NCBI GenBank assembly: GCA_963775685.1
Contig: CAVZJV010000014.1
Span: 1,472,001-1,536,000, forward strand
DNA from: Candidatus Bathyarchaeota archaeon
GTDB lineage: Archaea > Thermoproteota > Bathyarchaeia > Bathyarchaeales > Bathycorpusculaceae
Reading direction: 5' to 3'
Length of the DNA stretch: 64,000 nucleotides
Positions 17,377 to 42,724 of this stretch are shown in pieces. Numbering within the stretch: position 1 is the first letter of the stretch; the number at the start of each line of letters is the position of its first letter. The notes under the pieces are model-generated. The model searched no databases, was not told the origin of the DNA, and worked only from the letters and a program-made list of their open reading frames with translations. Made by a program: the position numbers and the translations under genes.

Positions 17377-17413
17377 AGTTACGTTTGGAATGATATAGAA
17401 TAAAAGTCTATTC

Positions 17414-17527
17414 GTAAAACTTTCTTGACTAAATTCTGGAGAGCGATGCCGTGACTTAGTCAAACTTTCTTGACTGATAAAAGTGTTGGATTCACCACAT
17501 CACTGGAAAATGCCAAAGTTCCTTGAC
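17414..17527. promoter_or_regulatory. Three GTCAAG-N4-CTTGAC-type palindromes upstream of the PQQ gene promoter
   Basis: gtaaaactttcttgac 17414, gtcaaactttcttgac 17459, gccaaagttccttgac 17512; the first abuts BRE/TATA on the minus strand. Confidence 0.65.
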
Positions 17528-17550
17528 TTGGCTTGTTTTGATGTTTTATG

Positions 17551-17646
17551 CAGGATAAAAAAGCTACACCCCCTGGCGGTTTAGGCAGCCGTGGCATCAA
17601 ACCCTCTTTGAATGGAGAAATCACTTTCGCATAACCCCATTTTTTT
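17551..17646. repeat. att-like junction J5
   Basis: caggata..acaccccctg..gtggcatcaaaccc..tggagaaatcac..aaccccatttttt; left part matches the integrase-tRNA spacer 42606-42621. Confidence 0.7.
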
Positions 17647-17670
17647 CTTCATTTTGATTTTGGCTTATAG

Positions 17671-19302
17671 TTACTTACTCTGACTCGCTTTTGCTCTTCT
17701 GCCTTTTATTATTACTTGAAGCGCAATCACAAATACTGTCACAACTGCTGCGGCAGCCACCAATCCATAGAGCACTTCAAGCCAGCTCAATTGATCCTGG
17801 GATCCATTATTTGAAGCCGTTGGACTTGGAGAAACAGTCATAGTGAACATGATTGATATTTGATGTGAACTAAAGGGGGTAATGCACCATACATAATAGT
17901 TGTTGCTGTCCTGTGTGTAGTCTTGATTTGAAGTTGGTTGACCATCAATGAATATTATTGGTTTCGTGCCATATGTTACCGAGTTTTTTGGAATAGTAAC
18001 GTTACCAAAACCTGCTGTTCCGCTTTGACCCGTTACAGTGAACGATAATGTTGTTGTAGATTCAGATTGGTTTGTTGCCAGTACCACATTTGACATTTGT
18101 GAACTGGTTATGTTTCCATGGATAGTTAGTTCAATCGTTGAACCATTATCTGTCATCGCTGGTACAGTTATTGATGAAGGAGATGGCAATGGAGTAGGAC
18201 TTGGCGTTGGAGTTGCAGTTTGAGTAGGTGTTGTTGAAGGAGTTGGAGTTGGGTTTTTTGGTGTTGGAGTCGGAGTTGGAGTGGGTGTTGGGAAAGATGA
18301 AGAGGTGTTAAATGGTGAAATGAGGGGGTAATTGTCGAAGTAGACAGTATTTCCATCCCAGTTAGCTACGAGCGGATATGGCGTGTTTCCAATTCCTGTG
18401 TGATCAATTTCTGTTCCCGAATAATCGCTCCAGTAGTTGCCTTCTTTACCGTTATCCCAGTAATTTGCATATCCAGCCCAATCGCTATTTCTTCCAAAAA
18501 GCAAGGCTTGAAAAGTGTTTTGGATGAAATTGTTATGGTAAAAAGTATTGCTTGAAGGCGGTTCAATCGCAAGACCATATTGATTATATGCGAAAGTGTT
18601 GCCGACAACGGTGTTGTTTGAACAATCGTTGTTGAGTTGTAGTCCATAATTGTATGTACTGTTCCCAAAGTAGTTACCAATAATTGTATTGTTTCCGCTT
18701 GCATCAGACAGTAATGCCCCAAAACCATTGTTTACAATGTTGTTGTCTATAATGCTGCAGCCGCTACCGCCCTCAACATATACGCCTGTCCCTCCGCAAG
18801 TCGTTATATTATTCCCTACGATGGTGTTTTCTGAACCGTATTGTAGGAAAATGCCGTTTCCGTATTGAATGGCACTTATGGTGTTGCTTGTGATGTTAAT
18901 GTAGCTTGAAAAATACTCAGCTCTTATTCCGTCTGGTTCAGTTACAGAATATGGGTATCCTTTGTTGTTGCTTACGGTGAAATTTTCGATGGAAACATAG
19001 CTCGCATTAATATAAATGATGTTTTCGGTTGCGTTGTTTGCATCTATGAATGTTGATTCCTGATTTTCTCCGATAAGGTTTATGGATTTGTTTATAACAA
19101 GAGTTTCAAAGTAGGTGCCACTTTTCACGAGTATTGTATCGCCTTGAGAGGCGTTGTCTATAGCGGCTTGAATGGTTGGGTAATCGTTTGGAACAACAAT
19201 CGTTTTGGATTGAGCTTTCACAGTAGCTGGGGGTAGTACAACTAAAGAGGCTAAAAACAACGCAACAAGAACCAGAGCAAAACTCTTGCTTAATCTATTC
19301 AT
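17671..19302 (-). CDS. Secreted NosD/parallel beta-helix protein with PT linker and membrane anchor
   Basis: IVVPNDYPTIQAAID, Asn-rich beta-helix repeats, NTFYHNNF, WDNGKEGNYWSDY, C-terminal TM. Confidence 0.9.
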   Translation of the reverse strand: MNRLSKSFALVLVALFLASLVVLPPATVKAQSKTIVVPNDYPTIQAAIDNASQGDTILVKSGTYFETLVINKSINLIGENQESTFIDANNATENIIYINASYVSIENFTVSNNKGYPYSVTEPDGIRAEYFSSYINITSNTISAIQYGNGIFLQYGSENTIVGNNITTCGGTGVYVEGGSGCSIIDNNIVNNGFGALLSDASGNNTIIGNYFGNSTYNYGLQLNNDCSNNTVVGNTFAYNQYGLAIEPPSSNTFYHNNFIQNTFQALLFGRNSDWAGYANYWDNGKEGNYWSDYSGTEIDHTGIGNTPYPLVANWDGNTVYFDNYPLISPFNTSSSFPTPTPTPTPTPKNPTPTPSTTPTQTATPTPSPTPLPSPSSITVPAMTDNGSTIELTIHGNITSSQMSNVVLATNQSESTTTLSFTVTGQSGTAGFGNVTIPKNSVTYGTKPIIFIDGQPTSNQDYTQDSNNYYVWCITPFSSHQISIMFTMTVSPSPTASNNGSQDQLSWLEVLYGLVAAAAVVTVFVIALQVIIKGRRAKASQSK

Positions 19303-19341
19303 ACTTACCTTTGAAACGGAAGTTGAGATAAAAGGGTTCTC

Positions 19342-19381
19342 GTAAAACTCTCTTGACTGAGAATCGTCAAGTTTTCTTGAC
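19342..19381. promoter_or_regulatory. Two GTCAAG-N4-CTTGAC palindromes upstream of the NosD gene
   Basis: gtaaaactctcttgac 19342 and perfect-arm gtcaagttttcttgac 19366. Confidence 0.7.
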
Positions 19382-19404
19382 TAAGCTGGCTTTGATGTTT
19401 TATA

Positions 19405-19503
19405 CAGGATATAGAATCTACACCCCCTGACGTTTTGAGCAGCAGTGGTATCGAACCCCACAGGCAGTGGAGACTATTTCAACATCACCCGCAAACCCCC
19501 TTT
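19405..19503. repeat. att-like junction J6
   Basis: caggata..acaccccctg..agtggtatcgaacccc..agtggaga..atcac..aaaccccctttc; homologous to J5. Confidence 0.7.
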
Positions 19504-19633
19504 CTATTGCGCTTGTCATTTCTTTATTACCATTCATCGTGGTGTTTGGACCCCATCTAGTTATTCGCAAAGCTTAAGAATAAACAATCAACAAACTATC
19601 ATTCAGTTCGATTATCAAGGCAGGAAATTTTAA

Positions 19634-20197
19634 TTGTTGATAAAAGGGAAATATCTTTTCTCTCCAAGGGATGAGTTGAGAGACCTCGACATTAATAATT
19701 TTCCATCGATTATTGAAGCATCTGAACGTAGAATTCAAGGATGGTTCTTTAATCCCCTCGAAAAGTTTTTAGCTGACAATAATGACTTTTTTATGGCACC
19801 CGCAGTAGAATGCATTCTGGTCGACGCACTAACTGGTTTCTTCTTTGGCATTTCTGGAGATACTCACAAAGATGACTTTACAGCGTTCTTGAGCCAAAAC
19901 TTGTACGTTCAGAAAGAAGACGCAACAGAATTCTATTTGAGATTTCGATGTGGACTTTTGCATCAGGCTAACATCAAGAAATGTAGCTCCATCACGACGG
20001 AAGTTGAAAGCCTCTATCTTCAAAAGGAAAATGACGTATTATTCATAAATCCAATTGGCTTTCGAAAACAACTCTGAGAATTCTTTACAAGACATGTAAA
20101 GAGGCTTCGTGTGGAAAAAGATATTGAAATTAGGTTTAGAAAGCGTTTCTTTCATCTTTTCGTAGATGAATTCGAGGAAAGCAAATGGACGGGATAG
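19634..20197 (+). pseudogene. HEPN-like (RxxxxH) protein with internal TGA at 20075
   Basis: FRCGLLH motif; after the TGA the frame continues EFFTRHVKRLR...FRKRFF to TAG 20197. Confidence 0.6.
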
Positions 20198-20514
20198 TAA
20201 GTCAGAAACAGATTATAAGAAAGACATAGTCAATTCAATTCAATCTTTCCTTGGCACATGGAAGGAAGAAAAGAAAAAGTGACCTTAACTTTGGAATAAG
20301 CAGCTTTTGGCTAAATGGACTCAATAACGAAAAAGCATTGAAACTCGTTAGGGAGGATGTTGAGGTGGGTTTAGCTCAATACGAGACAAGAATAAAACTA
20401 ATTGACGTAGCGATTGAATTTAAGAATAGTAGTGAAGGCGATTTCCAAATTGAGTTTAAAATTACGTACTTAACGAAGACTGTGAACAAAATTCATCACA
20501 CCTATTTTTCTTAA
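20185..20514 (+). pseudogene. GPW/gp25-like protein, frameshifted near 20270
   Basis: MDGIV..DIVNSIQSFLGTWKEE / RKSDLNFG...VREDVEVGLAQYETRIKLIDVAI fits the gp25 pattern I..SI..L.T..GER...FG...AL..EPRI. Confidence 0.55.
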
Positions 20515-20564
20515 AAGTCCTCCTCTAATGAAGCTGACATCAAACGTTTTTAATAATTAATTTA

Positions 20565-21582
20565 GAGTCGTGCACAATTCGTTTTTTATATTTTTGTCAT
20601 CTAATAATCTAATGAGCAGGTCTGGGCTAGAACCCGTAAATACCATTGGTTTGGTGTCTTGCAGGCGCTATAACCATTGAGTTATTGGGTCAGGCCCAGT
20701 ACTTGCTCACGCACTTCAGGCTTGTTTCCTCAAGCAACAAAGCTTTGATCGCTTCCGCATTATAACTTATGAGTCCAGCCAATACCATAGCCGACTTCTT
20801 AACCAAACCCCTCGGCCTCATCCAACATTGCTTCAAAACGTTAGCTTTTAAATGCCCGTTGAACTGCTCCACAACATAACACTTAGTCTTCAACAGCTTA
20901 ACATGCTTGATTTTCTTGCGTTTGCCTCTTCTAGGGTTACAAGCAATAACAGGCTCAGCATCAATGGCCTTGACGGCTTCTTTGTTCGTCTTTGAGTCGT
21001 AGCCCGCATCCGCTAAAACGTAATCTGCCTCCAAATCCTCAATGAGCCCTGGAAGAAACGGAGAATCATAACGGTTTCCCAGTGTGACGACAGCCTTCAA
21101 AGGCAAGCCCAGCTGGTTTACGGCGGCATGAAGCTTAAAGCCCCTGAACTTTCCTCTACTTGTATGACCCCAGCCTGCTTCCATATCGTAGAGATCTTCT
21201 AGCGGTGTCGAATCAACGATGACAACTTTTGTCGGCTCTATTAGTTGAAGCATGTCTGCAATGTTTACGAAAGTTTCTTCCAGAAGGCTTAGGTAACGTC
21301 TCCACCATCTTCCAACAGTTGTCCTATCAGGTATTCTGCTTAGACCAAGTGTTCTAGCAACATCAGAATGCTTCTTTAGATGCTCAACCACTCGTGTGTC
21401 GTTGTCTAATCCTTTTAGCCTTCATAGACAAGAATTCTAAGTGCTTTGACTCTTCCGTAACCAGGGTTTCCACGTCTTTTAGGTTCAGTTGGAACTATCG
21501 CTTTGTTGACGAAAAGCCTGATAACCTCACAGGCTTCCATACTAGAACATAATTGGGAAGCAGCTTAAATTCTGCACACCCC
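20565..21582 (-). mobile_element. Insertion sequence (~1.0 kb, DDE_Tnp_1; IS5/IS982-like)
   Basis: Imperfect TIRs gagtcgtgcacaatt / (rc) ggggtgtgcagaatt, TA on both flanks, transposase inside. Confidence 0.8.
20690..21540 (-). pseudogene. DDE transposase, frameshift near 21422
   Basis: IPDRTT, VDSTPL, GFKLH, ADAGYDS, VEQFNGHLK; N-terminus MEACEVIRLF... lies in another frame. Confidence 0.85.
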
Positions 21583-21609
21583 TAAATTAATTAATTGAGT
21601 TGTTGGGGG

Positions 21610-21660
21610 TTATAGATGAGGCTACTGGGATTTGAACACCTTTTAAAGTGGAGATATCGC
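21610..21660. repeat. att-like junction J7 (probable left end of provirus-like element)
   Basis: tgggatttgaacacc-ttttaaagtggagatatc; same two-part consensus as J1/J4/J5/J6. Confidence 0.6.
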
Positions 21661-21742
21661 CACTCTCTTAGTTTCTTCGCAGCTTCCTTCTCTTTTTTCT
21701 TTCCAGAAACAGTTATTCTAAACTCTTCAAGGAGGAACAATT

Positions 21743-22228
21743 TTGAAGATTTACAGTGATGACCCTAACTTACCCTACAAAACAACAAAGTTGAAAGCTC
21801 TATACACAAAAAGCGAAATAGACGGACTATTCGCCAAGTGGGGAGTCAAAGACACCTACTGGCGCTGGGATCCAGACAACAACGAAGTCTTTGTCCAATT
21901 CAAAATCGTTGAAAAGATCGATGATGTGCCCAGGCAGTTTTCAGCAAAGGTTGAGGCGCCAGCGATATGGGACCGTAAAACCCGTTCTAAAGAGGAATCT
22001 ATAAACTGGGACATTAGCATGCGCGTTATGTTCTGGTTCATTAAATCTCACTTAGAAGCTGCTTACCTGCTTCAGAGCTCCAAGACGGTTGCTTTTCTTC
22101 CCTACATCTTCACTGGTGATGATTCTCGGACAATTAAGGATCTCATTCCAATGCTTAACCAACTTCAGCATTTGCATGCCCTACCCAAACCGTCTGTTAT
22201 TATTGACCAGGAACCGGAGGTCTCTTGA
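21743..22228 (+). CDS. Virus-type hypothetical protein
   Basis: Y.TT....TKSEI..L..WG and RVMFWFIKSHLEA...FLPY pattern recalled from phage hypothetical proteins. Confidence 0.6.
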   Translation: MKIYSDDPNLPYKTTKLKALYTKSEIDGLFAKWGVKDTYWRWDPDNNEVFVQFKIVEKIDDVPRQFSAKVEAPAIWDRKTRSKEESINWDISMRVMFWFIKSHLEAAYLLQSSKTVAFLPYIFTGDDSRTIKDLIPMLNQLQHLHALPKPSVIIDQEPEVS

Positions 22229-22530
22229 TTTTGGGTTGTTTTCGTTTGGGTCCTCGGAACATCCTTCAGCCTTTGCTTGAGCAGGCAGCTTTAGAGGAGC
22301 AGTCGCTGGGTGCTCCTGCAAAAAAGACGATGCTTGAAATTGCAGATAAGCTGGTTCGGTGGGCGCCTAACTTGTATAGCAGCTACAGTAACCCAAGCTA
22401 TTCTGACGAGGAGAAGAATGCTGCTAAGGCGTTACTGAAAAAGAATGGCTTAGAAAAGCTTGGGAATCTGAGTCCCAGATACAAGAAAGCTACCTTAGAG
22501 CTGATCGAGGCTCAAAAGGACCAAGTTTAG
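22225..22530 (+). CDS. Hypothetical protein
   Basis: ORF overlapping previous stop, GGAGG SD. Confidence 0.5.
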   Translation: MILGCFRLGPRNILQPLLEQAALEEQSLGAPAKKTMLEIADKLVRWAPNLYSSYSNPSYSDEEKNAAKALLKKNGLEKLGNLSPRYKKATLELIEAQKDQV

Positions 22531-22543
22531 GAGCTGCGTTTTT

Positions 22544-23497
22544 TTGGTTGAAGCATCTGATAACACCGCCAACACCCCAACCAACAGGTGTTGCAACAGT
22601 TGGCACTCCTCAAAGCCCAGAGGCATAGAAGCACTAACATATCAGATTATCGATGCTTCAGAAGTTGAGCTTAAACCCTGTGAGATAGCCCGAAAAATCC
22701 ATGCTCCACGCAAGCCAACCCCTGGCCAGTACTCGACTGTTCGCTTTTTCTGCTCCAAATTGCTGCAAAAAGGCCTAATCATTCAGCCTTACCCTGGAGC
22801 ATACTGTAACAAAATCACCTACGGGGTGCGGTTCGTGCCGCTCTCAGTGCATAACATTAGCTTGCGCAGTTTTGTCTGCCAAGATGTAAAGCATTGGGAA
22901 ACCGATGAGTTTGTCGGAGGAGTGAAGATTCATGTTTGTTTTGGATCTGAGCGCCGTAAAATCAGCGGTTACATCGCATGTGACGTCGCTGGCATGAGTC
23001 ATGACGCGTGTCTGTTGGCACTTAACCGTTGGTTTGACCTAGTCAGTGACCGTTTAGGTTTCCAACTGTGTGATTTGGAGATTTTAACTTTTGAGTGCAA
23101 CAAAGACTATCATGGTATCAGATTAGATGGCGTTCAATGCATTACTAAAATTGGCCTCTATGGTATGGTTGAGCGGGTGTATCAAAAAGAGGAAGCCCTT
23201 GTGCGCAAGGAACGCAAGATTACAAAGCCTATGAGCGTAAACCGCTTTGAGCAAGCCATATCCAAAGGCTTTGCTGACACCGAAAGATCCCAGCATGCAT
23301 TTGAGCTCCGAGAAGAGGTCAAACGCAACACTGAAGCACTAAAGTACACTAACAGTAGGCTTTTGCAGCTTGAACGTCTAAACGAGGCAATGTTTGGAGC
23401 TCTCACTCGCTTAAATGATGTCTTGGGTAAGCTTGGCGATGTAGGTAGCCCTGTGCCTCTTGGGAAAAGGCAGGATTCTGAGGAGTATGTTCGTTGA
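22544..23497 (+). CDS. wHTH-containing protein with C-terminal coiled coil, possible replication/regulatory protein
   Basis: LKPCEIARKI...TVR..CSKLLQKGLI wHTH; function inferred from position only. Confidence 0.5.
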   Translation: MVEASDNTANTPTNRCCNSWHSSKPRGIEALTYQIIDASEVELKPCEIARKIHAPRKPTPGQYSTVRFFCSKLLQKGLIIQPYPGAYCNKITYGVRFVPLSVHNISLRSFVCQDVKHWETDEFVGGVKIHVCFGSERRKISGYIACDVAGMSHDACLLALNRWFDLVSDRLGFQLCDLEILTFECNKDYHGIRLDGVQCITKIGLYGMVERVYQKEEALVRKERKITKPMSVNRFEQAISKGFADTERSQHAFELREEVKRNTEALKYTNSRLLQLERLNEAMFGALTRLNDVLGKLGDVGSPVPLGKRQDSEEYVR

Positions 23498-23596
23498 CAG
23501 TTATGGAGTTGATTGTTTGGGAAGTCATGAGAAAAAAAAAGCTAAGAAAAGGCAGAAACAGCAAAAATTGGAACTGAAGAAATCGGGGGTTTACAC

Positions 23597-24163
23597 ATGA
23601 GCGAGAAGAAAACGATTCTTAAGGTTCCTGATGCATACAAGGGGCTTCTGGAAGATATCCGTACGCTAAAATCAGACGATGCTAACCCTAACAAAATGAG
23701 TAACAAGCAAAAAGAACAGGTTTGGAAAAGCCTGCAAAAGCACGGCTGGATCTACCCAATCGTTACAGATTTGAAGGGGGTCTTCGGGGATGGGGAACAA
23801 CGTGTCCAAGTTTGCAAGGATCATGGAGAGTTTTTTGCGCCAGTGCTTAGGCTTGCCCTCTCAGATCCTCAACGGAGGCTGCTACGTCAGACCCTGAATA
23901 AGCTTAGGGGTAAGCATAACAGAGAGCTTGATGAAGCCGATTACAAGCGCATAATCGAGGCTGGCGAGAAAGAAGACTTACAAGCATTGCTGACGGCGAT
24001 TGGCGAAAGAATTCCCGAAGATCTAGGCGGACCTCGTGAGGGCTCTATGTTGATTCCTGAAAGCTACGAGCTGGTCATTGAGTGCAAAGATGAAACTGAC
24101 CAGAAAGCCAAATTTGACCAATTAACCGCTCAAGGGTATGCTGTGAGGGTGCTGAATCTCTAA
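23597..24163 (+). CDS. ParB/Srx-like N-terminal domain protein (phage type)
   Basis: NPNKMS, SLQKHGWIYPIV, DGEQRV, LNKLRG. Confidence 0.8.
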   Translation: MSEKKTILKVPDAYKGLLEDIRTLKSDDANPNKMSNKQKEQVWKSLQKHGWIYPIVTDLKGVFGDGEQRVQVCKDHGEFFAPVLRLALSDPQRRLLRQTLNKLRGKHNRELDEADYKRIIEAGEKEDLQALLTAIGERIPEDLGGPREGSMLIPESYELVIECKDETDQKAKFDQLTAQGYAVRVLNL

Positions 24164-24768
24164 TGGACTTTGACTTTTATAACACCTGGAATGAGCCAGA
24201 CAGTTTCCGAGCCAAAAGCGTCATAGGAAGCTTCACATTAAACGACGTTAAGCTGCAGAAGCACTTCAAAGGCTCCCTACCAATTGAAGATGATGATTGG
24301 CAGTTAGGCATAATAGTTGGCCGCAGCGGATCAGGCAAGAGCAGCATCGCAAAAAAACTGTTTCCAAACCAATACATTACAAGCTTTGATTACCAGGGCA
24401 AATGCATCCTCGACGACTTTCCCCAAGAGCTCAGCACATCAGAGATTACCCGTATGCTCTGCAGCGTCGGGTTTGCCTCTCCTCCGGATTGGCTAAAGGC
24501 TTACAGTTGTCTTAGCCAGGGCGAGAAGATGCGCGTCGACGTCGCTCGTGCACTCTGCCTGCCTCAGAAACGCATAGTCTTTGACGAATTTACAAGCGTA
24601 GTGGATCGAGAAGTTGCAAAAATTGGATCCTACGCCATCAGCAAAGCCGTCCGAGCTCAAAGCGGAAAACAATTCATTGCTGTAACCTGCCATTTTGACG
24701 TCATAGACTGGCTGGAAGTAGATTGGGTCTACAACACCGACACAATGGAGTACATAACTTTAGGCTAA
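24163..24768 (+). CDS. Phage-type ABC ATPase
   Basis: Walker A GRSGSGKS, LSQGEKMR signature, FDEFTSVVDR, VTCHFDVIDWL. Confidence 0.85.
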   Translation: MDFDFYNTWNEPDSFRAKSVIGSFTLNDVKLQKHFKGSLPIEDDDWQLGIIVGRSGSGKSSIAKKLFPNQYITSFDYQGKCILDDFPQELSTSEITRMLCSVGFASPPDWLKAYSCLSQGEKMRVDVARALCLPQKRIVFDEFTSVVDREVAKIGSYAISKAVRAQSGKQFIAVTCHFDVIDWLEVDWVYNTDTMEYITLG

Positions 24769-24775
24769 TGGGAGT

Positions 24776-25654
24776 ATGGGAAGAATGGTTGAAACCTATA
24801 GCGCAGACCAAGAACGCATCTACTACATAGCGGAAGCAACCAAAGGCACAACGCCAACAGTGACGCCCGCAATGCTTGGAGTACCCCATGAATCAATCAA
24901 CCCAGGCTTTAACCCAAGCAATCTACTACTGCGAAGCGGCGGAAACTACGACCTCTTTGCCATCAAAAAAGGCGTCCGCGTGCCCTCCCTAAAAGTCGCC
25001 TACATCGTGCCCTCAGCAGCGCCAATCGACCTGCTGCAATACGCCAAAATAGACCTGGACAAGACCTTGAGCGTTCAAGCATTATACTATAAAGGCTCTT
25101 GGGCATCAGCAACCGACCTCATTTCACTGCTATACAACTACATGCGAATTGGCAAGGCAAGCGTTAGCTGCGAAATTGACGATGTTCTCAAAGCCAGTCT
25201 GGAAATGGTAGGCCAGAACCTCATTACGGGCACGGCAAAACTGACTGATGCAACTTACACGGATTATGCAGGTGCAGTTGCATTCAACGAAACCGACGTT
25301 ACCATTGGGGGAGCTGCAAACGATCGGGTTGTAAGCTGGAAATTCGACGTAAACAACAATCCTAAACAGGTGCCCGTTATCCGCAGCACCAACGGGTATC
25401 TAGCCAAATACATTCCTTTTGGCAATCGACAACTAAGCGGTGAAATCCGTTTTGAGTTTGAGAGCAAAGCAGAGATGGACAATGCCCTCGCCGACACAGA
25501 GTTCAACATCAGATTCGGTCTAGGCGGTACCGCGTATGCTCAGATGGAGGCAGCCAAATGGGGCAACATAACTAGCGAGAAGTGGCTTGATGACTTAATC
25601 GCGGTTAGGGCACAGTTTGACGCAAAAGGACCGCTTAGCATAGCGGCAAGTTAA
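24776..25654 (+). CDS. Tail tube (major tail) protein
   Basis: YIAEATKGTTP N-terminus, V.SW.F..NN and GNRQLSGEI..EF motifs; position before chaperone and tape measure. Confidence 0.7.
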   Translation: MGRMVETYSADQERIYYIAEATKGTTPTVTPAMLGVPHESINPGFNPSNLLLRSGGNYDLFAIKKGVRVPSLKVAYIVPSAAPIDLLQYAKIDLDKTLSVQALYYKGSWASATDLISLLYNYMRIGKASVSCEIDDVLKASLEMVGQNLITGTAKLTDATYTDYAGAVAFNETDVTIGGAANDRVVSWKFDVNNNPKQVPVIRSTNGYLAKYIPFGNRQLSGEIRFEFESKAEMDNALADTEFNIRFGLGGTAYAQMEAAKWGNITSEKWLDDLIAVRAQFDAKGPLSIAAS

Positions 25655-25667
25655 CGGTGATCTAAAA

Positions 25668-26036
25668 ATGGAGACTACAAAAGTAAAAATTGACAAGCGT
25701 TTTGGCGAGCAATTTGTAGGCGACTATGAATTCCGCCAAATTACCCAGGGAGAATACGAGCGGGTACTCGTTAGCTACATGGATGCAGCAGGCAAAGTTC
25801 CAAAAACGGATATTCTCAAAGTTAACCGGGAATGCCTCTGGATGTCCCTTGTTAGCCAGCCCGCCTCAAAACCTCTTTTCAAAGACCTCATAGTTCAAGG
25901 ACGCCTCCCTTATGGTCTTAGCCTAAAGCTGCAGGAAGTCTACGATAACGTCAATGGCATCGAGATGGATGAGCAGCGTTTTTTATCATCGCCATCCGAG
26001 GAAAACGACCAAACCCCCGACTCACAAAGTTCGTGA
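25668..26036 (+). CDS. Tail assembly chaperone (gpG-like)
   Basis: Follows tube gene; slippery T TTT TTA at 25979-25985 near the end. Confidence 0.7.
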   Translation: METTKVKIDKRFGEQFVGDYEFRQITQGEYERVLVSYMDAAGKVPKTDILKVNRECLWMSLVSQPASKPLFKDLIVQGRLPYGLSLKLQEVYDNVNGIEMDEQRFLSSPSEENDQTPDSQSS

Positions 26037-26191
26037 TGTGTGAGCGATTCGGATGGACAGAGCAAGAATACAATGCCACAAGCAGACAAACCATAGCTGA
26101 GTTTTCACTAATCCTGCGAACGTTAGAGAAGATGGCAGAGGAAGAAGCTAAAAATGCAGAAAAGGAAAAAAGGAAATGTCCGTCGAGGTAA
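25979..26191 (+). CDS. -1 frameshift extension of chaperone (gpGT-like), not in ORF track
   Basis: -1 frame open for 70 codons: FIIAIRGKRPNPRLTKFVMCERFGWTEQEYNAT...; stop overlaps start region of next gene. Confidence 0.7.
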   Translation, partial: FFIIAIRGKRPNPRLTKFVMCERFGWTEQEYNATSRQTIAEFSLILRTLEKMAEEEAKNAEKEKRKCPSR

Positions 26192-26544
26192 CATTTGACG
26201 TTCAAGGTGTGGACGAATTTGTTGCGGCAATGCAGCGCCTAGATGTGGCTATGCAGGAGAGGGTCCGCGTTTGGCTCTATGATTGGGCGCAGCGATTAGT
26301 TGCTGAGGCGAAACGTAGTGCTCCTGTACGCACGGGGTATCTTCAAAGTAAAATCTACGCTATGACGCAAGAATGGGTCGTAGAAATTGGGGCAGCGGCA
26401 GTGTATAGCTACTTTGTGGAGTTCGGCACCCGCTATATGTCTGCTCATCCGTTTCTTTATCCTGCAGTGCAAGCGTTTCTCCCAGAGTTAGAGACCAACA
26501 TCATAGGTGCAATCGAACAGGCAAAAGCGGAGGCGGGATTGTGA
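26176..26544 (+). CDS. HK97 gp10-like tail completion protein
   Basis: AKRSAPVRTGYLQSKI, YFVEFGTRYMSAHPFLYPA. Confidence 0.88.
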   Translation: MSVEVTFDVQGVDEFVAAMQRLDVAMQERVRVWLYDWAQRLVAEAKRSAPVRTGYLQSKIYAMTQEWVVEIGAAAVYSYFVEFGTRYMSAHPFLYPAVQAFLPELETNIIGAIEQAKAEAGL

Positions 26545-27083
26545 GTTTTAGAGAAATAACCCTGTCTATTCGGGCAATCAACCGAGCAAGCAGCGAGTTT
26601 AATCGTATTCAAACAGACGCCCAACTTATGACAGCCCGCATCAAAAGCTTTGGAGCTGCTCTCGCTGGCATAGGTGCCGCAGGCACAGCCATCGGATACC
26701 TGGCTAACCAATTTGGGATTTTAAACGATGAGCAAACCAAAGTCTTCACCGGCACCATGATGCTTGTCTCAGTTATGGGCATGTTTCTGCGTACAAGCAC
26801 CGGGTTAGCTATAGCTCAAAAAGTCTATGCCGCCGCATGCGCGTTTGCAACGGCAGTCCAAAACGCCCTAAACATCAGTTACGCAACCTTCCTGGCGCTT
26901 ACTGGTGTGGGTATCGCTGTGATTGCCGCTGCCGCAGTAGCTATGTATGCTTTTGCCAGCAGCATGAACACGGCAACGGCAAGCGTGCAGAGCTTCAATG
27001 CATCGGCAGCCGAAACTCCGACCCGCGTTAAAGGCATTACTCGTGCAGGAGACGCAGAACTTGCTAGGCGAGGGATTGAGTAA
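26541..27083 (+). CDS. Miniature tape measure protein (180 aa)
   Basis: TMP-type N-terminus ITLSIRAINRASSEF, Ala-rich helices, AVQNALN...GIAVIAAAAVA. Confidence 0.65.
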   Translation: MSFREITLSIRAINRASSEFNRIQTDAQLMTARIKSFGAALAGIGAAGTAIGYLANQFGILNDEQTKVFTGTMMLVSVMGMFLRTSTGLAIAQKVYAAACAFATAVQNALNISYATFLALTGVGIAVIAAAAVAMYAFASSMNTATASVQSFNASAAETPTRVKGITRAGDAELARRGIE

Positions 27084-29471
27084 ATGTCCACCGCTGCCCC
27101 AAGTATTGCCTTAGTTTTTGGCGCCATAGCACCTCCGCAAGCTGATATCGTTGAGCTTCTGGTTCATTTAGGCTGTAGCAAAGAAGTCAGCAGCTACGAC
27201 ATCACATTGCACAATCATAATGGCAAGTACAGCCCAAACGGCGCTTACCCCATAACCGTGGGGATGGATGGCTCAATTAGCTTAGGGCGGACACCAAACT
27301 GTCCGTTGCTTATGACGTTGCGGGTTGAAAAAGTCCACTACCAAAGCTCGCCTATTGAAAGCTACTTGACGGTTTCTGGGCGCTGCTGGGGTGAGCGACT
27401 GTTCCGCCGAGTTGTCACGGCAACCTATTCGGGCATGAAGGGCGAAGAGATAGTTAAGGACCTTATGGATTATTATGCGGGTCTTAGCCACAATAGAAGC
27501 GGCGTTGAACTCGTCGAAAACACAGATACGACCTATACAGAGCTAAAACCCGAGGATTCACCTCTCTGGGACATCCTCAAGTACGTTGCCGAATCAGCCG
27601 ACAAAGCAGGCGTAATAGGCTACGATTTTCGTGTTGCACCAGACGGCAAATTCGAGTTCTTTCCCAAACTCTCCAAAACAAACTCAACCGTAATCACCGA
27701 AAACATCGACACTATAGCAGAGTACGAAAAAGACATCACACGTGTAAGAAACAAGGTTGTTGTCTACGGCTTAGCTGACAAAAGTTATCCTTCAAACAAA
27801 GTTGACTGGACAAACAGCTTAGCTCCTTCGGATGGTTCTTGGAGCGGCTCAATAGGAACGGTGAGTCTTGACGCAACAGGGAATCCCACTGGCGGGTCTT
27901 GCATAAAACTCTCTGTTACCAGTAACTACGCAGGTGTGGTTGATCTTGACCTCGCTGCAGGTCATGAAGTTAACTTTGATGCCTATCCAGTTTTGGATTT
28001 GCAGCTAAAAATACAGGACACCTTTGCAGGAACAGGCTTCATTCTGCTAATGGATACTGCAGGCAAATTCGCTTCCAAAACCATTTCTATTTCTCCGGAC
28101 GCAGCTTTCCACGTTTTTGAGACTGGCGCTGGATCAGCCTATGCTAACCAATGGGAAAGGGTTGACTTAGGCTTTAATTGGGTTGCCGTCCAGAAAATTA
28201 GAGTTTCACTTGGCTTTTCAGGTGTTGGAAGCGGTAACTTTTGGGTTTATGCCCTCTACTCTGGGGGTCGCCGCTACTCGGGGGTTGTCGAAAGCACACC
28301 AAGCCAGACTGCCTATGGTTTGCGGGAATATGTTGAGGTTGATGAGGAGCTTTGGAGCGATAGCGAATGTGTCAGGCGGGCGTCTGCGCTTTTGGCGTAT
28401 CTCAAAGACCCAGCCGAACACTTGCACATAGTTAGCACAGTTATAGATTATGGGGCGTCGCCGATTAAGGCAGGCGATAAAGTACACGCAGAGCTCCCAA
28501 CGGAGGGCGTCAACAGCGATTTTAGAGCTGAAAGCGTTGAGTATCGAGTGCCAAAAGAGGACCCAACAAAGCTGGAAATAACATTGGAGCTTGGCAAGGA
28601 ACCGCCGCACCTAGCCGATTACCTCTATGGCCTACGCACCCATACACCTAACGTTGAGAAGCTCAGCAGAACAAAGCTTGGCAAAAGAGGCGCTCCAATC
28701 GCCACGGGCGGCAGTGTATTAGGTGCCTCTAGGTTTACAACAAACGTTGAAGTCGATAAAACCTCCCCCGCCTTTAACTTGGTTATTTCAGGCGTTCATA
28801 AGGCTGTGTTTGGGCATGATGGAGCGAACACTTTTTTGGCAGCCATGGCGGGCGATCTTATTTTGGAATCAGCCATAAATCATTTAATCCGCCCCAACAG
28901 CGACGGCAGCGACGACCTTGGCAATGGCAGCTTCCGCTTTGGTTCAGCGTATTTGAAGAATAATCTATTTGTGGCCGGCTGGGAAGTTATCGCCAACACG
29001 GGCAGAATTAACATGTGGTCAATGCCACGAGATACCTCTGGCTTGGTGCTCGAAGCCCAGGGAGCAGGCAACTATCCAATGTATGTAGACCCCAACGGCA
29101 GATATGCACCCGCCGCCCACAATCACGCCAACATGTACCCTGCAGGAGGAACCAATACCGGGTCATGTGGGGACACATCGACTTATTGGCATGTCATTGC
29201 AGGCGATAGCGTCTGGTACAATGCCCTCGGACACATGGACATGATAGATGACCTAGCTGCCATCAAGAAAATAAAACCCAGTGAAAGGACCGACAAAAAG
29301 GGTGTGCCGTTAATTGATGCTAACTCTCTGCCTGAAGAGGTGCGCTCTGATGAGGGTTTAATTCATGCTGGTCATTTGATGGGTCTAGCCCTGGGCGCTA
29401 TCAGACAATTGAACGCTAAAGTTGAGACTTTAGAAAAAGAGCTAGAAAGGCTGCGATGTGCTCGGTACTAA
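27084..29471 (+). CDS. Tail tip/hub plus receptor-binding protein with C-terminal chaperone-like coiled coil
   Basis: Hub-like N-terminus (RVRNKVVVYG, YGLRE), central beta-rich insert, C-terminal LALGAIRQLNAKVETLE. Confidence 0.65.
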   Translation: MSTAAPSIALVFGAIAPPQADIVELLVHLGCSKEVSSYDITLHNHNGKYSPNGAYPITVGMDGSISLGRTPNCPLLMTLRVEKVHYQSSPIESYLTVSGRCWGERLFRRVVTATYSGMKGEEIVKDLMDYYAGLSHNRSGVELVENTDTTYTELKPEDSPLWDILKYVAESADKAGVIGYDFRVAPDGKFEFFPKLSKTNSTVITENIDTIAEYEKDITRVRNKVVVYGLADKSYPSNKVDWTNSLAPSDGSWSGSIGTVSLDATGNPTGGSCIKLSVTSNYAGVVDLDLAAGHEVNFDAYPVLDLQLKIQDTFAGTGFILLMDTAGKFASKTISISPDAAFHVFETGAGSAYANQWERVDLGFNWVAVQKIRVSLGFSGVGSGNFWVYALYSGGRRYSGVVESTPSQTAYGLREYVEVDEELWSDSECVRRASALLAYLKDPAEHLHIVSTVIDYGASPIKAGDKVHAELPTEGVNSDFRAESVEYRVPKEDPTKLEITLELGKEPPHLADYLYGLRTHTPNVEKLSRTKLGKRGAPIATGGSVLGASRFTTNVEVDKTSPAFNLVISGVHKAVFGHDGANTFLAAMAGDLILESAINHLIRPNSDGSDDLGNGSFRFGSAYLKNNLFVAGWEVIANTGRINMWSMPRDTSGLVLEAQGAGNYPMYVDPNGRYAPAAHNHANMYPAGGTNTGSCGDTSTYWHVIAGDSVWYNALGHMDMIDDLAAIKKIKPSERTDKKGVPLIDANSLPEEVRSDEGLIHAGHLMGLALGAIRQLNAKVETLEKELERLRCARY

Positions 29472-29539
29472 ATGGCAGGCACAAAAGATCCCGCAATACG
29501 TCGAAGAAAAATGAACTGCTCGGTTATGTCGATTGCTTA

Positions 29540-29555
29540 GTCAAGATTTCTTGAC
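29540..29555. promoter_or_regulatory. GTCAAG-N4-CTTGAC palindrome abutting BRE/TATA
   Basis: gtcaagatttcttgac followed by gaaaacacctataaaa, upstream of 29603. Confidence 0.7.
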
Positions 29556-29602
29556 GAAAACACCTATAAAATGAAAGCGTCTATCAATCTTTCAGATAAA
29601 AA

Positions 29603-30535
29603 ATGAGAGCACATATTGCTTTACTAACGATCTGCCTCATTGTTTCTCTTTCAATCGTTACCTTACCAGTTGAAGCTCAAGAATTAGAACCGCTCAACCT
29701 AACAATCAAGCCAGACGGACGCATCGAGCCGGAAACTGATTTTGTTTGGCTTCAAAGAAATGGTTCCACCTACACTTTTGTAGTAGATATTTTTGGTACA
29801 ATTACGGTTCAAAAAGCCGGAATTACAATCGACGGAGCGGGGCACACTCTTCAGGGCAATCAGACGCTAAATGTGAGAGGGATAAATCTGGTAGGCCGTG
29901 ACGAAGCCTTTAACGCATACGGCAATGTCGTAGTAAAGAATCTGAGCATCTACAATTTCTCAGAAGGCATCTACACTCCCTCAAACAACAACAGCTTTAT
30001 CGGAAATCGTATCGAGAACGCCGGCATACATATTTTGGGCGGTAGTGGAGAAGGCAACTTAGTAAAGCACAACAGTTTCGTAAACGCTCGAATCTTTGTA
30101 GACTATAACCGCGGCGGACTTGATGTAATTACTGAAAACAACTTTTTCAACAGCGGAACGCTCGTTGACTTGGCGGATGCACCCTTTGTAGACAAAAATT
30201 ATTGGAGCAATTACACTGCCGCTTATCCTAATGCCACTGAAGTGGACAGTTCAGGAATTTGGGATACCCCTTATGTGGATGAGGTCTCTTGGGCAACAAA
30301 CAGAAGCATTGATTACCATCCCTTGATCAACCCCGTAACCGATTTTGAGATTCCTGCATTTGGCATTCCCCCTTCATCGGCAACTCCTACTCCCACGCAA
30401 CCTCCAACCACTAATACTGGTGAAGCACCTCAAATAGAACACTTCTTGACAACCATACTTGTTGCCTTAGTAGTTGCAGCGGGTGTTTTGGGAATAAGTT
30501 TAGCGGTGTACAGAAACAGGCATAAGCAATCCTGA
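29603..30535 (+). CDS. Secreted beta-helix (NosD-like) surface protein with membrane anchor
   Basis: TIKPDG, RNGSTYT, IDGAGHTLQG, NYWSNY...SGIWDTPY, DYHPL, TM plus RNRHK. Confidence 0.85.
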   Translation: MRAHIALLTICLIVSLSIVTLPVEAQELEPLNLTIKPDGRIEPETDFVWLQRNGSTYTFVVDIFGTITVQKAGITIDGAGHTLQGNQTLNVRGINLVGRDEAFNAYGNVVVKNLSIYNFSEGIYTPSNNNSFIGNRIENAGIHILGGSGEGNLVKHNSFVNARIFVDYNRGGLDVITENNFFNSGTLVDLADAPFVDKNYWSNYTAAYPNATEVDSSGIWDTPYVDEVSWATNRSIDYHPLINPVTDFEIPAFGIPPSSATPTPTQPPTTNTGEAPQIEHFLTTILVALVVAAGVLGISLAVYRNRHKQS

Positions 30536-30674
30536 TTTTAGTTTCTCCTATTTGAAAGTTGGTTATTTGATGTTGTTTGTCAGTAGAATTTTTTTTGTGA
30601 GCTATCTATGCGACTGCTCTCTTTTCGATCTTGAACTTGAACCAAGTTATCAAACTGACTTTTCTGGTTAACTT

Positions 30675-30884
30675 TTGGAGGTGGTTTGTTTGGTTGATGA
30701 GATAGAGGTATCTGAGAATAAGGAAGCCCTAATCGTTTTGGCTGGCACCGTTGCAGGCGCTACCACTTCGTTTGTTGCTTCTTTACCGATTCCGCTGGAG
30801 ATTAAGGCTCCGGCGACTGCGTTAGCATCTACTGTGACGGGTGCAATTCTGCTTTACTGGAAAAATAAAGTAAATATGCAGTAA
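30675..30884 (+). CDS. Small two-TM membrane protein (holin-like size and position)
   Basis: Two hydrophobic segments and basic tail; downstream of tail genes. Confidence 0.45.
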   Translation: MEVVCLVDEIEVSENKEALIVLAGTVAGATTSFVASLPIPLEIKAPATALASTVTGAILLYWKNKVNMQ

Positions 30885-37084: not shown

Positions 37085-37957
37085 ATGAGAGAGAAACGAT
37101 TTCTAGCAGTTTTAACAGTTTTGATGTTGCTGATAACCGGAGGAATTGCCTTTATGATGGCAGAGGCGCAAGCGCAATCTTCAGAAAGTGTATACATTAA
37201 CGCAGACGGGTCAGTGACAGGGACCAATAATATCCAACGAAACCGCAATGTTTACACTTTAATGGATAACATTTCAGGCAACATTCAAGTTCAGAGAAGC
37301 AATATAGTATTGGACGGAGCAGGGTATTCCCTTAACCAAGGTGGAATAGACCTAACCAACGGGATAGGGCAAGACCCAACACATTCCACCATTAGCAATG
37401 TAACAATCGAGAACTTCTATATTGAAAATGGAGGCATAGGCACTAATGGCGGTGGTAATTACACGTTCTACAATGACTACATTCCCTCCATCCAGTTTTT
37501 GGGAGACTGTATTAACAACAACATAACTTTCTGTACCGTTTCAGCAATTGCATTCGATTATGGAGGAAACGCCACATTAACCGAAAATAACCTTGGTAAC
37601 ATTTTAGTGTGGTTAAGTTTCGGTGGAATTGCTGACAGAAACTATTGAAGTGACTATTTAACTAAGTACCCTAATGCTACAGAAATTGATGATTCTGGGA
37701 TAGGCAACCAACCATATGTCTATGCTACTGTACAGAATTACACGCAAACAATCTATTGCCAAGATAATCATCCGCTAATGAAGCCAGTAACAATTCCACT
37801 GATGGGTTCAAATCCTTTAGTCAATCCAAGTGCCACTCCTCCTATTCCAGAGTTTCAACCATGGACAGTTTTGTTGCTGTTTGGCATAATAGTTACAACT
37901 GCTGGTTTGTTGGTTTACTTCAAAAAACGCCAACCGAAATCGGGAGGTAAAATATGA
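37085..37957 (+). pseudogene. Beta-helix surface protein interrupted by TGA at a conserved Trp (37646)
   Basis: RNY*SDYLTKYPNATEIDDSGIG; frame continues to PIPEFQP, TM, FKKR, stop at 37957. Confidence 0.8.
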
Positions 37958-41279: not shown

Positions 41280-42569
41280 ATGGTTGGATCTTCAGTTGGG
41301 GTTAAGTCTTCTGACGTTTTTGGCACCTTCTCCAGTTCTCCCGCTTGTGGATCCACGCTTCAAGAAAGCATCCCCCTAAACCCACCTTGCCCTCAATGCG
41401 GATCTAGAAAACTCTGGAGAGACGCCAAACGCTACACCGTTTTTGGGGATGAAATTCAAAGATGGCTTTGCCGAGAATGCGGCCTTAGATTCTCAGATCC
41501 AAATGATGTCAAGAAAAGCTGGAGCACCCAGGAGAAAGCAGCCCGATCGGAATTGAACAATGAAATAAAAATGACCTCTGACTTAGTATCTAATCGCCAA
41601 ATATGCGTCACGGAGACGAAAAACTTGGTAGCAGAACAAAAGACAACTGAAGTTCTGCGGAGAAACCAAACTGGCGAGGTCAAAGGAAAAATCATCGAAT
41701 ACGCCTGGTGGCTAAAAAAAGACGGAAAAAGCGAATCAACAATCCTGGGCAGAACAAAGATCCTAAGCGTACTCACAAAACGAGGAGCAAACCTCTACGA
41801 TCCCGAAAGCATCAAAGAAGCCATAGCCAAACAACCCTGGAGCAGCGGCAGAAAAAACAACGCTTGCGACGCCTACTCATCCTTCCTAAGAATGGTAGGC
41901 GGCACCTGGGAAGCACCAGTATACCAAACAATCCGAAAACTTCCCTTCATCCCCAAAGAAACGGAAATCGACCAGCTCATCGCAGGAAGCAGCAAACGCA
42001 TGGCCACTTTCCTACAAACGCTAAAAGAAACAGGCTCAAGATGCGGAGAAATCTGGCGACTAAAATGGGACGACATAGACTTCGAAAGCAAAGTCGTAAA
42101 CATCACCCCCGAAAAAAACAGCAACCCACGAGTAACCCACCTAAGCGACAAACTCCTCGACATGCTCAGACAACAGCCAAAGAACTACGGTGAATACGTC
42201 TTTTCCCGCCCAAACATGAGAGTAGATAACCACGCGGTCACATTCCAGCAACAACGCAAACGAATCGCAAAGAAAATCGGCAACCCAAGAATACTAAAAA
42301 TCCACTTCCACACTCTAAGACACTTCAAAGGAACCATGCTCTATCACAAGACCAAAGACCTGCTCTACGTAATGCAAGCCTTAGGCCACAAAAACATCAA
42401 AAACACGCTCCTCTACATCCAACTCGAAGAAGCATTGTTCCAAGGCGAAATAGACTACATCTCAAAAGTCGCAAAGACTCCAGGAGAAATCTGCGTCCTA
42501 ATCGAAGCAGGCTTTGAATACGTCACTGAATTTGAAGGCCTCAAGTTCTTCAGGAAAAGGAAGACCTAA
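41280..42569 (+). CDS. Tyrosine recombinase/integrase with N-terminal zinc ribbon
   Basis: CPQCGS/CRECG; ETGSRCGE (R), PEK (K), HTLRH, LGH, LLY catalytic set; ends 67 nt from tRNA-Leu 3' end. Confidence 0.95.
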   Translation: MVGSSVGVKSSDVFGTFSSSPACGSTLQESIPLNPPCPQCGSRKLWRDAKRYTVFGDEIQRWLCRECGLRFSDPNDVKKSWSTQEKAARSELNNEIKMTSDLVSNRQICVTETKNLVAEQKTTEVLRRNQTGEVKGKIIEYAWWLKKDGKSESTILGRTKILSVLTKRGANLYDPESIKEAIAKQPWSSGRKNNACDAYSSFLRMVGGTWEAPVYQTIRKLPFIPKETEIDQLIAGSSKRMATFLQTLKETGSRCGEIWRLKWDDIDFESKVVNITPEKNSNPRVTHLSDKLLDMLRQQPKNYGEYVFSRPNMRVDNHAVTFQQQRKRIAKKIGNPRILKIHFHTLRHFKGTMLYHKTKDLLYVMQALGHKNIKNTLLYIQLEEALFQGEIDYISKVAKTPGEICVLIEAGFEYVTEFEGLKFFRKRKT

Positions 42570-42636: not shown

Positions 42637-42724
42637 TGGTGCAGGGGGTGGGATTCGAACCCACGAACGCCTACGCGATAGGGTCCTAAGCCCTACTCCG
42701 TTGACCTGGCTTGGAGACCCCTGC
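42637..42724 (-). tRNA. tRNA-Leu(TAG)
   Basis: GCAGGGG acceptor stem, TAGGG-CTTAGGA-CCCTA anticodon arm, long variable arm, GTTCGAATC, encoded CCA. Confidence 0.96.

Follow-up and report, generated by a model that had tools for sequence, protein, structure and literature searches.

The window analysed here is a stretch of 64,000 nucleotides on contig CAVZJV010000014.1 of a Candidatus Bathyarchaeota archaeon, and it carries an integrated virus-like element with genes of a predicted non-contractile tail and no recognisable head genes. We conclude, with a probability of roughly 0.9, that this element is a defective provirus remnant, left without heads and tail terminator by one recent deletion of ~14.8 kb that is unique among the relatives searched. 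On this reading the provirus belongs to a siphovirus-like head-tail virus family of Bathyarchaeia. A first-pass annotation, made from the letters alone, had described an intact headless tail module and proposed an archaeal tailocin-like particle or a satellite, with a recently deleted provirus as an equally possible origin. The evidence shows the deleted provirus: related elements have heads, and the headless layout was found in none of those searched.

The annotation was right that the element itself holds no head genes. Searches for head or packaging genes with Pfam, PHROGs and tblastn with the head proteins of a sister provirus (element B, described below) were all empty over 21743-42569.

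A deletion junction between an ATPase gene and the tail genes

When the element was compared with its own genome by blastn, two related proviruses were found on the same contig:

C14 ~570-604 kb: element B, matching window 23602-24751 at 87.4% and window 24748-29440 at 94.7%, with ~14.8 kb between the two matches
C14 1-42 kb: element C, matching the left and right arms of the window element; its tail module differs

The two matches to element B meet in the window just upstream of the tail genes. The features on either side are:

24163-24768, forward strand: truncated ABC-type ATPase gene, matching phrog_11143 at profile positions 12-190 of 357 only
24776-25654, forward strand: tail tube protein, 292 amino acids (aa) (PF18906, E 8.6e-16, 58.8 bits against a cut-off of 27; phrog_290, 3.8e-16)
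25668-26191, forward strand: tail assembly chaperone, with the G form at 25668-26036 and a -1 frame extension to 26191 (phrog_9001, 9.1e-6)
26176-26544, forward strand: tail completion protein (HK97 gp10-like, Neck1; PF04883, 1.2e-8; phrog_5, 2.7e-20)
26541-27083, forward strand: 180-aa hydrophobic protein in the tape-measure position, placed by position alone and without a family match in Pfam or PHROGs
27084-29471, forward strand: candidate distal tail or hub protein of 795 aa, variable towards its C terminus (phrog_400 'tail protein', 2.3e-5)

By blastn against the own genome and by alignment, the junction lies at 24748-24751, with 3-4 bases of microhomology and ~14.8 kb absent relative to element B. 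Homology to the ATPase genes of B and C ends at 24751, and homology to the 3' end of the gene that directly precedes the tube gene in B begins at ~24748. As discussed below, this pre-tube gene matches a tail terminator. The open reading frame (ORF) of the window's ATPase consists of 196 ATPase codons followed by the tail of the terminator gene and ends ...MEYITLG-stop; the pre-tube gene of B, and that of the closest outgroup, locus L033, ends ...FEDITLG-stop. Only the last six codons of the terminator gene remain in the window. Because the leftover 3' end of a conserved gene is fused here to a cut ATPase gene, the event was a deletion in the window lineage and not an insertion in B.

The join is also seen in a public sequencing run. 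Four such runs were compared with 24000-25600; coverage was patchy, with 0.22 of the sampled words in the best run, and uncovered parts are uninformative. A 151-base contig of run X1 covers 24679-24829 and bridges the junction without difference or gap, with more than 70 bases on each side. This contig argues against an assembly error; it is not independent evidence that the junction has spread. Runs X8 and X3 hold contigs from relatives whose match to the window breaks off at exactly 24748 and 24751, respectively: the loose end reads as the 3' end of the terminator gene in the X8 contig and as the continuing ATPase gene in the X3 contig.

What the window has lost can be read from element B. 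Its extra DNA encodes the acetyltransferase (C-terminal) half of the ATPase family, regulators and a weak holin-like ORF (PF16083, 2.5e-5, below the cut-off). It also holds the large terminase TerL (phrog_979, 2e-91; Terminase_6N and Terminase_6C above the Pfam cut-offs), a 459-aa portal-sized ORF, a 351-aa protease/scaffold-sized ORF with a coiled-coil tail, a capsid candidate, and five more ORFs directly upstream of the tube gene. The capsid candidate was missed by PHROGs and Pfam, and BLASTP found no similarity between it and the capsid protein of locus L002 (E 0.33). In element C the candidate is uninterrupted (317 aa), and this copy falls on capsid-protein clusters when searched against the ESM Atlas (score 1.00; 29% of members carry PF25209 and 14% carry PF05065), a match that we count as a lead only.

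The sister elements themselves look damaged. As assembled, element B is frameshifted in five genes: the capsid candidate, the terminator gene and its ~540-aa upstream neighbour, the chaperone extension and the gene in the tape-measure position. In element C, TerL and the integrase are each split. When the window, B and L033 are aligned together, B shows one 2-base and one 1-base insertion within the tail region. The small frameshifts of B and C could be real or assembly errors; they lie outside long homopolymers. Judged from the sequences as assembled, all three proviruses of this genome look defective.

The ABC-type ATPase and the acetyltransferase are two overlapping ORFs in both sister elements, at L029:14611-15695 (B) and L030:6261-7345 (C), and together they match phrog_11143 end to end. 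In these sister copies an A7 run follows closely on the position at which the window's ATPase gene is cut. Several relatives have a single ~480-aa ORF in place of the pair. Besides the three proviruses, the genome holds provirus fragments at C14:1191213-1191760, C14:1803991-1804239 and C4:16975-18589.

The missing terminator gene and the relatives of the element

The four ORFs upstream of the tube gene in element B correspond to two genes, of ~540 and ~330 aa, in nearly all relatives; B is frameshifted in both. We modelled the ~330-aa protein from an alignment of 16 sequences (L033:8996-9991 and homologues; alignment A3), with a mean predicted local distance difference test score (pLDDT) of 79.6. 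The model matched a tail chain of HFTV1 (Haloferax tailed virus 1; 9fkb_Pa) at Z 14.8, with a root-mean-square deviation of 2.6 over 143 aligned residues, followed by the P74-26 neck (Z 13.5), the T5 terminator p142 (Z 12.5), a gene transfer agent chain (Z 12.1), the pyocin R2 collar (Z 11.8) and lambda gpU (Z 11.5). These terminator-fold matches cover the N- and C-terminal parts of the model. Between them, at residues ~119-292, lies an inserted beta-sandwich of ~170 residues that resembles carbohydrate-binding modules (Z ~8). The terminator fold emerged only from a structure search independent of Foldseek. The Foldseek matches themselves (PDB, BFVD) were to phi812 baseplate chains and lectin-like domains, mostly on the inserted beta-sandwich, and were set aside. 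On the predicted model, then, the pre-tube protein matches a tail terminator.

The ~540-aa gene is harder to place. Its model, from an alignment of 17 sequences (A2), had a mean pLDDT of 43.3 and was unusable. In Pfam the protein gave sub-threshold matches to C5-epim_C (0.0022) and the K1-lyase Rider domain (0.0037), and in the ESM Atlas it fell among unnamed viral clusters. No sheath was recognised in the window or its relatives, with the ~540-aa gene lacking a usable model.

Both genes are deleted in the window. The tail module is thus not intact, contrary to the first-pass annotation. The same annotation reported that it recognised no tail terminator, and the reason is now plain: the gene lies within the deleted stretch.

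We next consider whether other members of the family share this layout. A search with the tube protein yielded 25 loci in IMG/VR, and a search with a tube alignment yielded 12 loci in genome contigs. Eleven of the 12 are titled as Bathyarchaeota, Bathyarchaeia or uncultured archaeon metagenome-assembled genomes (MAGs), and one is titled Gallionella. The latter, L041, is a 5.8-kb contig that carries the family's tube and terminator pair; its label is probably a binning error. The tube protein had no tblastn match in 50,697 deposited phage records.

In every locus that has upstream DNA, the terminator gene lies directly upstream of the tube gene: 22 of 25 IMG/VR loci, 12 of 12 genome loci, and element B (35/35). 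The remaining three IMG/VR loci (L003, L024, L025) start inside the tube gene and hence have no upstream DNA. The ~540-aa gene precedes the terminator and tube genes in the relatives. The join of ATPase to tube gene was absent from all 25 IMG/VR and 12 genome loci. Of the relatives, 22 with several kb of flank were scanned for head genes, using PHROGs and, for L033 and L038, tblastn with the proteins of element B; 16 of them have a recognisable capsid protein, terminase, portal or protease.

We also searched 200 genomes of the same family with a 951-base query across the junction. None gave a match that spans it. Matches were found in 22 genomes, and they end at the junction (query position 452) or before it, or begin after it. 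B and L033 are colinear with the window on both sides of the junction. The annotation had suggested looking for the same headless layout in independent genomes; the result was none of 35 relatives and none of 200 family genomes.

Gene order varies within the family. In L009, L020, L036, L039 and L043 the gene for the large terminase comes after the tail module and is immediately followed by the ABC-type ATPase gene; in B and C it lies upstream of the portal. These arrangements indicate that the head and tail modules of this virus family are shuffled. L040 has many frame changes inside single genes, with one gene in three pieces, which suggests an error-prone assembly or heavy decay.

Selection, age of the deletion and competing explanations

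The tube, the chaperone with its frameshift signal and the gp10-like protein are present and open, as the first-pass annotation had described. The chaperone gene contains a canonical slippery heptamer, T_TTT_TTA, at 25979-25985, in the chaperone frame, and past it the -1 frame stays open. All 36 relatives that have the gene carry the heptamer in frame (L001-L025, L033-L040, L042-L044), even where protein identity falls to 27-30%, and the extension is in the -1 frame in all 33 relatives with a detectable extension match. The heptamer is a strictly conserved -1 frameshift signal of an archaeal virus family.

For the tape measure, an open 180-aa ORF does lie in the right place, and its identity rests on that position. 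Four relatives (L002, L005, L009 and L011) have this ORF called without interruption, and there the protein is 180-183 aa long. The N-terminal ~510 residues of the 795-aa protein are conserved among relatives. It matched PF24032 (YQBQ-like) below the cut-off (2.7e-4), and against the PDB, searched with the single sequence and with a 6-sequence profile, the best relevant match was an OB-fold chain of Gp5/VgrG with E 0.08, which is not decisive.

Between 24776 and 29471 there is not a single indel between the window and L033. We estimated the ratio of non-synonymous to synonymous substitution rates (dN/dS) from changes assigned to terminal branches in the three-way alignment of the window, B and L033. 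The tail genes have 105 synonymous and 30 non-synonymous changes on the window branch (dN/dS 0.086), 92 and 34 on the B branch (0.11), and 121 and 38 on the L033 branch (0.094). These counts indicate that the window's tail genes have been under strong purifying selection for nearly all the time since their split from the relatives. A low dN/dS is predicted by a recent deletion and by domestication alike, and the test does not separate the two; the dN/dS check proposed by the annotation thus gave a value that fits a recent deletion without proving domestication. What does separate them is the missing terminator and the absence of a second instance.

The course of events can be set out as follows. 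One illegitimate deletion of ~14.8 kb, seen directly at its junction, started inside the ABC-type ATPase gene and stopped six codons short of the terminator gene's end. As read from the gene content of the relatives, it took out regulators, both terminase subunits (small and large), portal, protease/scaffold, capsid and connector genes, the ~540-aa gene and the terminator, leaving the tube, chaperone, tail completion, tape-measure-position and distal tail proteins. That the surviving tail genes are still open is put down to the age of the deletion, which is recent on the scale of the split from the relatives. We infer that the remnant makes no particle, because the tube would polymerise without a terminator, and that its tail genes are heading towards decay.

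Several observations weigh against this account. The window's tail ORFs are free of frameshifts or stops, whereas element B carries several. The dN/dS of the window branch is as low as that of complete relatives, which is compatible with selection that continued after the deletion. Six of the 22 scanned relatives (L005, L010, L022, L034, L037 and L044) have no recognisable head gene; these were scanned for the long ORFs of the available DNA only and carry little information either way. The left end of the element has no defining repeat. Finally, run X1 is possibly the genome's source sample, and its bridging contig is possibly not independent support.

Could the host instead keep these headless tail genes as a domesticated F-type tailocin-like cluster and release tail particles as a weapon? 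Open tail ORFs, a window-branch dN/dS of 0.086 and an element without head genes would all be expected of it, but a low dN/dS is equally expected if the deletion is recent. The terminator gene and the adjoining conserved ~540-aa gene are gone, whereas the collars of pyocin R2 and diffocin, solved structures among the fold matches, do have a terminator-fold protein. Neither the layout nor the junction recurs among the relatives and family genomes searched. No lysis gene was recognised in the element by Pfam or PHROGs, and the sole weak holin-family ORF belongs to the stretch deleted here. We consider a tailocin highly improbable. The same holds for a helper-dependent satellite or complementation partner, that is, a remnant mobilised by proviruses B and C or giving tail parts to them. 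Two related proviruses with head modules do reside in the same genome, the chaperone extension and tape-measure-position gene that are frameshifted in B as assembled have open counterparts in the window, and the window's integrase is uninterrupted. Packaging sites usually lie near terminase genes, however, and the region around the terminase genes is deleted. As assembled, B's terminator gene, capsid candidate and ~540-aa gene are frameshifted, and C's TerL and integrase are split; the layout recurs nowhere else among the genomes searched. The element also has five tail genes, whereas known satellites mostly have none.

An assembly artefact, in which two of the three proviruses were wrongly joined, is extremely improbable. 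Three related elements with stretches of 85-95% identity in one genome are the kind of repeat that can mislead assemblers, but the join shares only 3-4 bases and no long repeat, the X1 contig covers 24679-24829 without a difference, and both flanks differ from B and C by 5-13% and are thus not copies of them. It is very unlikely, too, that the remnant is not inert and that, with three related and individually defective proviruses in the genome, selection maintains the remnant's intact genes for the chaperone, the tape-measure-position protein and the distal tail protein. Such a remnant might complement the frameshifted copies of B in a multi-locus virus-like or transfer-agent-like system, or be a first step towards an archaeal tailocin. 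A provirus remnant left by a recent deletion accounts best for the junction, the lost genes and the uniqueness of the layout among those searched.

The rest of the element and comparison with known systems

The other features of the element are:

21743-23497, forward strand: three ORFs (161, 101 and 317 aa) of the provirus left arm, without Pfam or PHROGs match
23597-24163, forward strand: ParB-like protein (phrog_498, 8.3e-16; phrog_620, 1.5e-11)
29603-30535, forward strand: 310-aa secreted protein that has a signal peptide and is membrane-anchored at its C terminus, without a family match in Pfam or PHROGs
30675-30884, forward strand: 69-aa membrane protein, without a family match in Pfam or PHROGs; related copies in the sister elements
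37085-37957, forward strand: broken cargo gene, with an in-frame TGA at 37646-37648 where its paralogue has Trp
41280-42569, forward strand: tyrosine integrase, 429 aa, uninterrupted (PF00589, 9.9e-25; phrog_1, 2.3e-29)
42637-42724, reverse strand: tRNA-Leu(tag), the likely integration target at the right end (ARAGORN)

The left arm at 22216-24751 is ~86-91% identical in nucleotides to the left arms of the two sister proviruses, and the ParB-like protein is ~89% identical in amino acids to its copy in element B. The 310-aa protein at 29603-30535 had been taken for a tail tip. It has paralogues among the cargo genes, one of them at 37085-37957 (30% identity over 316 aa, tblastn), and with its signal peptide and membrane anchor it probably belongs to the cell surface or the cargo and not to the tail. 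The paralogue at 37085-37957 is the broken cargo gene: tblastn with the 310-aa protein passes through the stop at 37646-37648 in one frame. Several cargo genes had been called broken, of which this one was checked and is indeed interrupted. A membrane protein described as holin-sized exists as the 69-aa ORF, and no family match connects it to holins.

The ends of the element are less sharply drawn. No att repeats rose above shuffled controls, either by blastn at word size 7 or by local alignment of the tRNA region against 19000-23000, where 9 of 100 shuffles scored as high; no repeat supports the left end that had been placed at 21630. An insertion-sequence (IS)-type transposase gene lies at 20690-21391, just outside the left end. 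Further left, at 17411-19458, a 103-base repeat occurs twice (78% identical, 1.85 kb apart), with short repeated 20-mers adjoining.

Bacterial F-type tailocins are headless siphovirus tails, and the window element resembles them in having predicted non-contractile tail genes without head genes. Unlike them, it has no terminator gene, no recognised lysis cassette and no conserved layout, and its origin is a deletion by which an unrelated ATPase gene was cut as well. No archaeal tailocin was described in the titles and abstract openings covered by a limited literature search, which is not a claim of absence from print; a passage of PMC12180501 cites a tailocin review only. A tailocin or a satellite would have been the first for archaea, and the evidence is that of an ordinary deletion remnant.

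The family's pre-tube protein is predicted from its model to share the fold of lambda gpU, T5 p142 and the HFTV1 tail protein (Z 11.5-14.8), and it differs from these in its inserted carbohydrate-binding-like beta-sandwich. Among viruses, the closest published counterparts are the head-tailed viruses and proviruses of Bathyarchaeia ('Fuxiviridae', 'Kunpengviridae', BATPV1/2), which are described as Caudoviricetes whose genes include those for a capsid protein of HK97 type, portal, TerL, tail tube and integrase (PMC10848311, PMC11705971). Relatives of the window element share this gene set, as compared with the published descriptions only. The 25 IMG/VR contigs and 12 genome loci point to a widespread, apparently undescribed siphovirus-like family of these archaea.

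The best match for the element itself is found among cryptic prophages and proviruses that arose by internal deletion. Like these, it lies beside a tRNA gene, its likely integration target, carries its own integrase, has homologous complete relatives, and shows one junction with microhomology beside remaining genes that have not decayed. In archaea such defective elements are described as less well documented, and the same source presents one provirus of Bathyarchaeia that is presumed defective (PMC11705971). Set beside these systems, the window element offers a clean, dated example of provirus decay in Bathyarchaeia.

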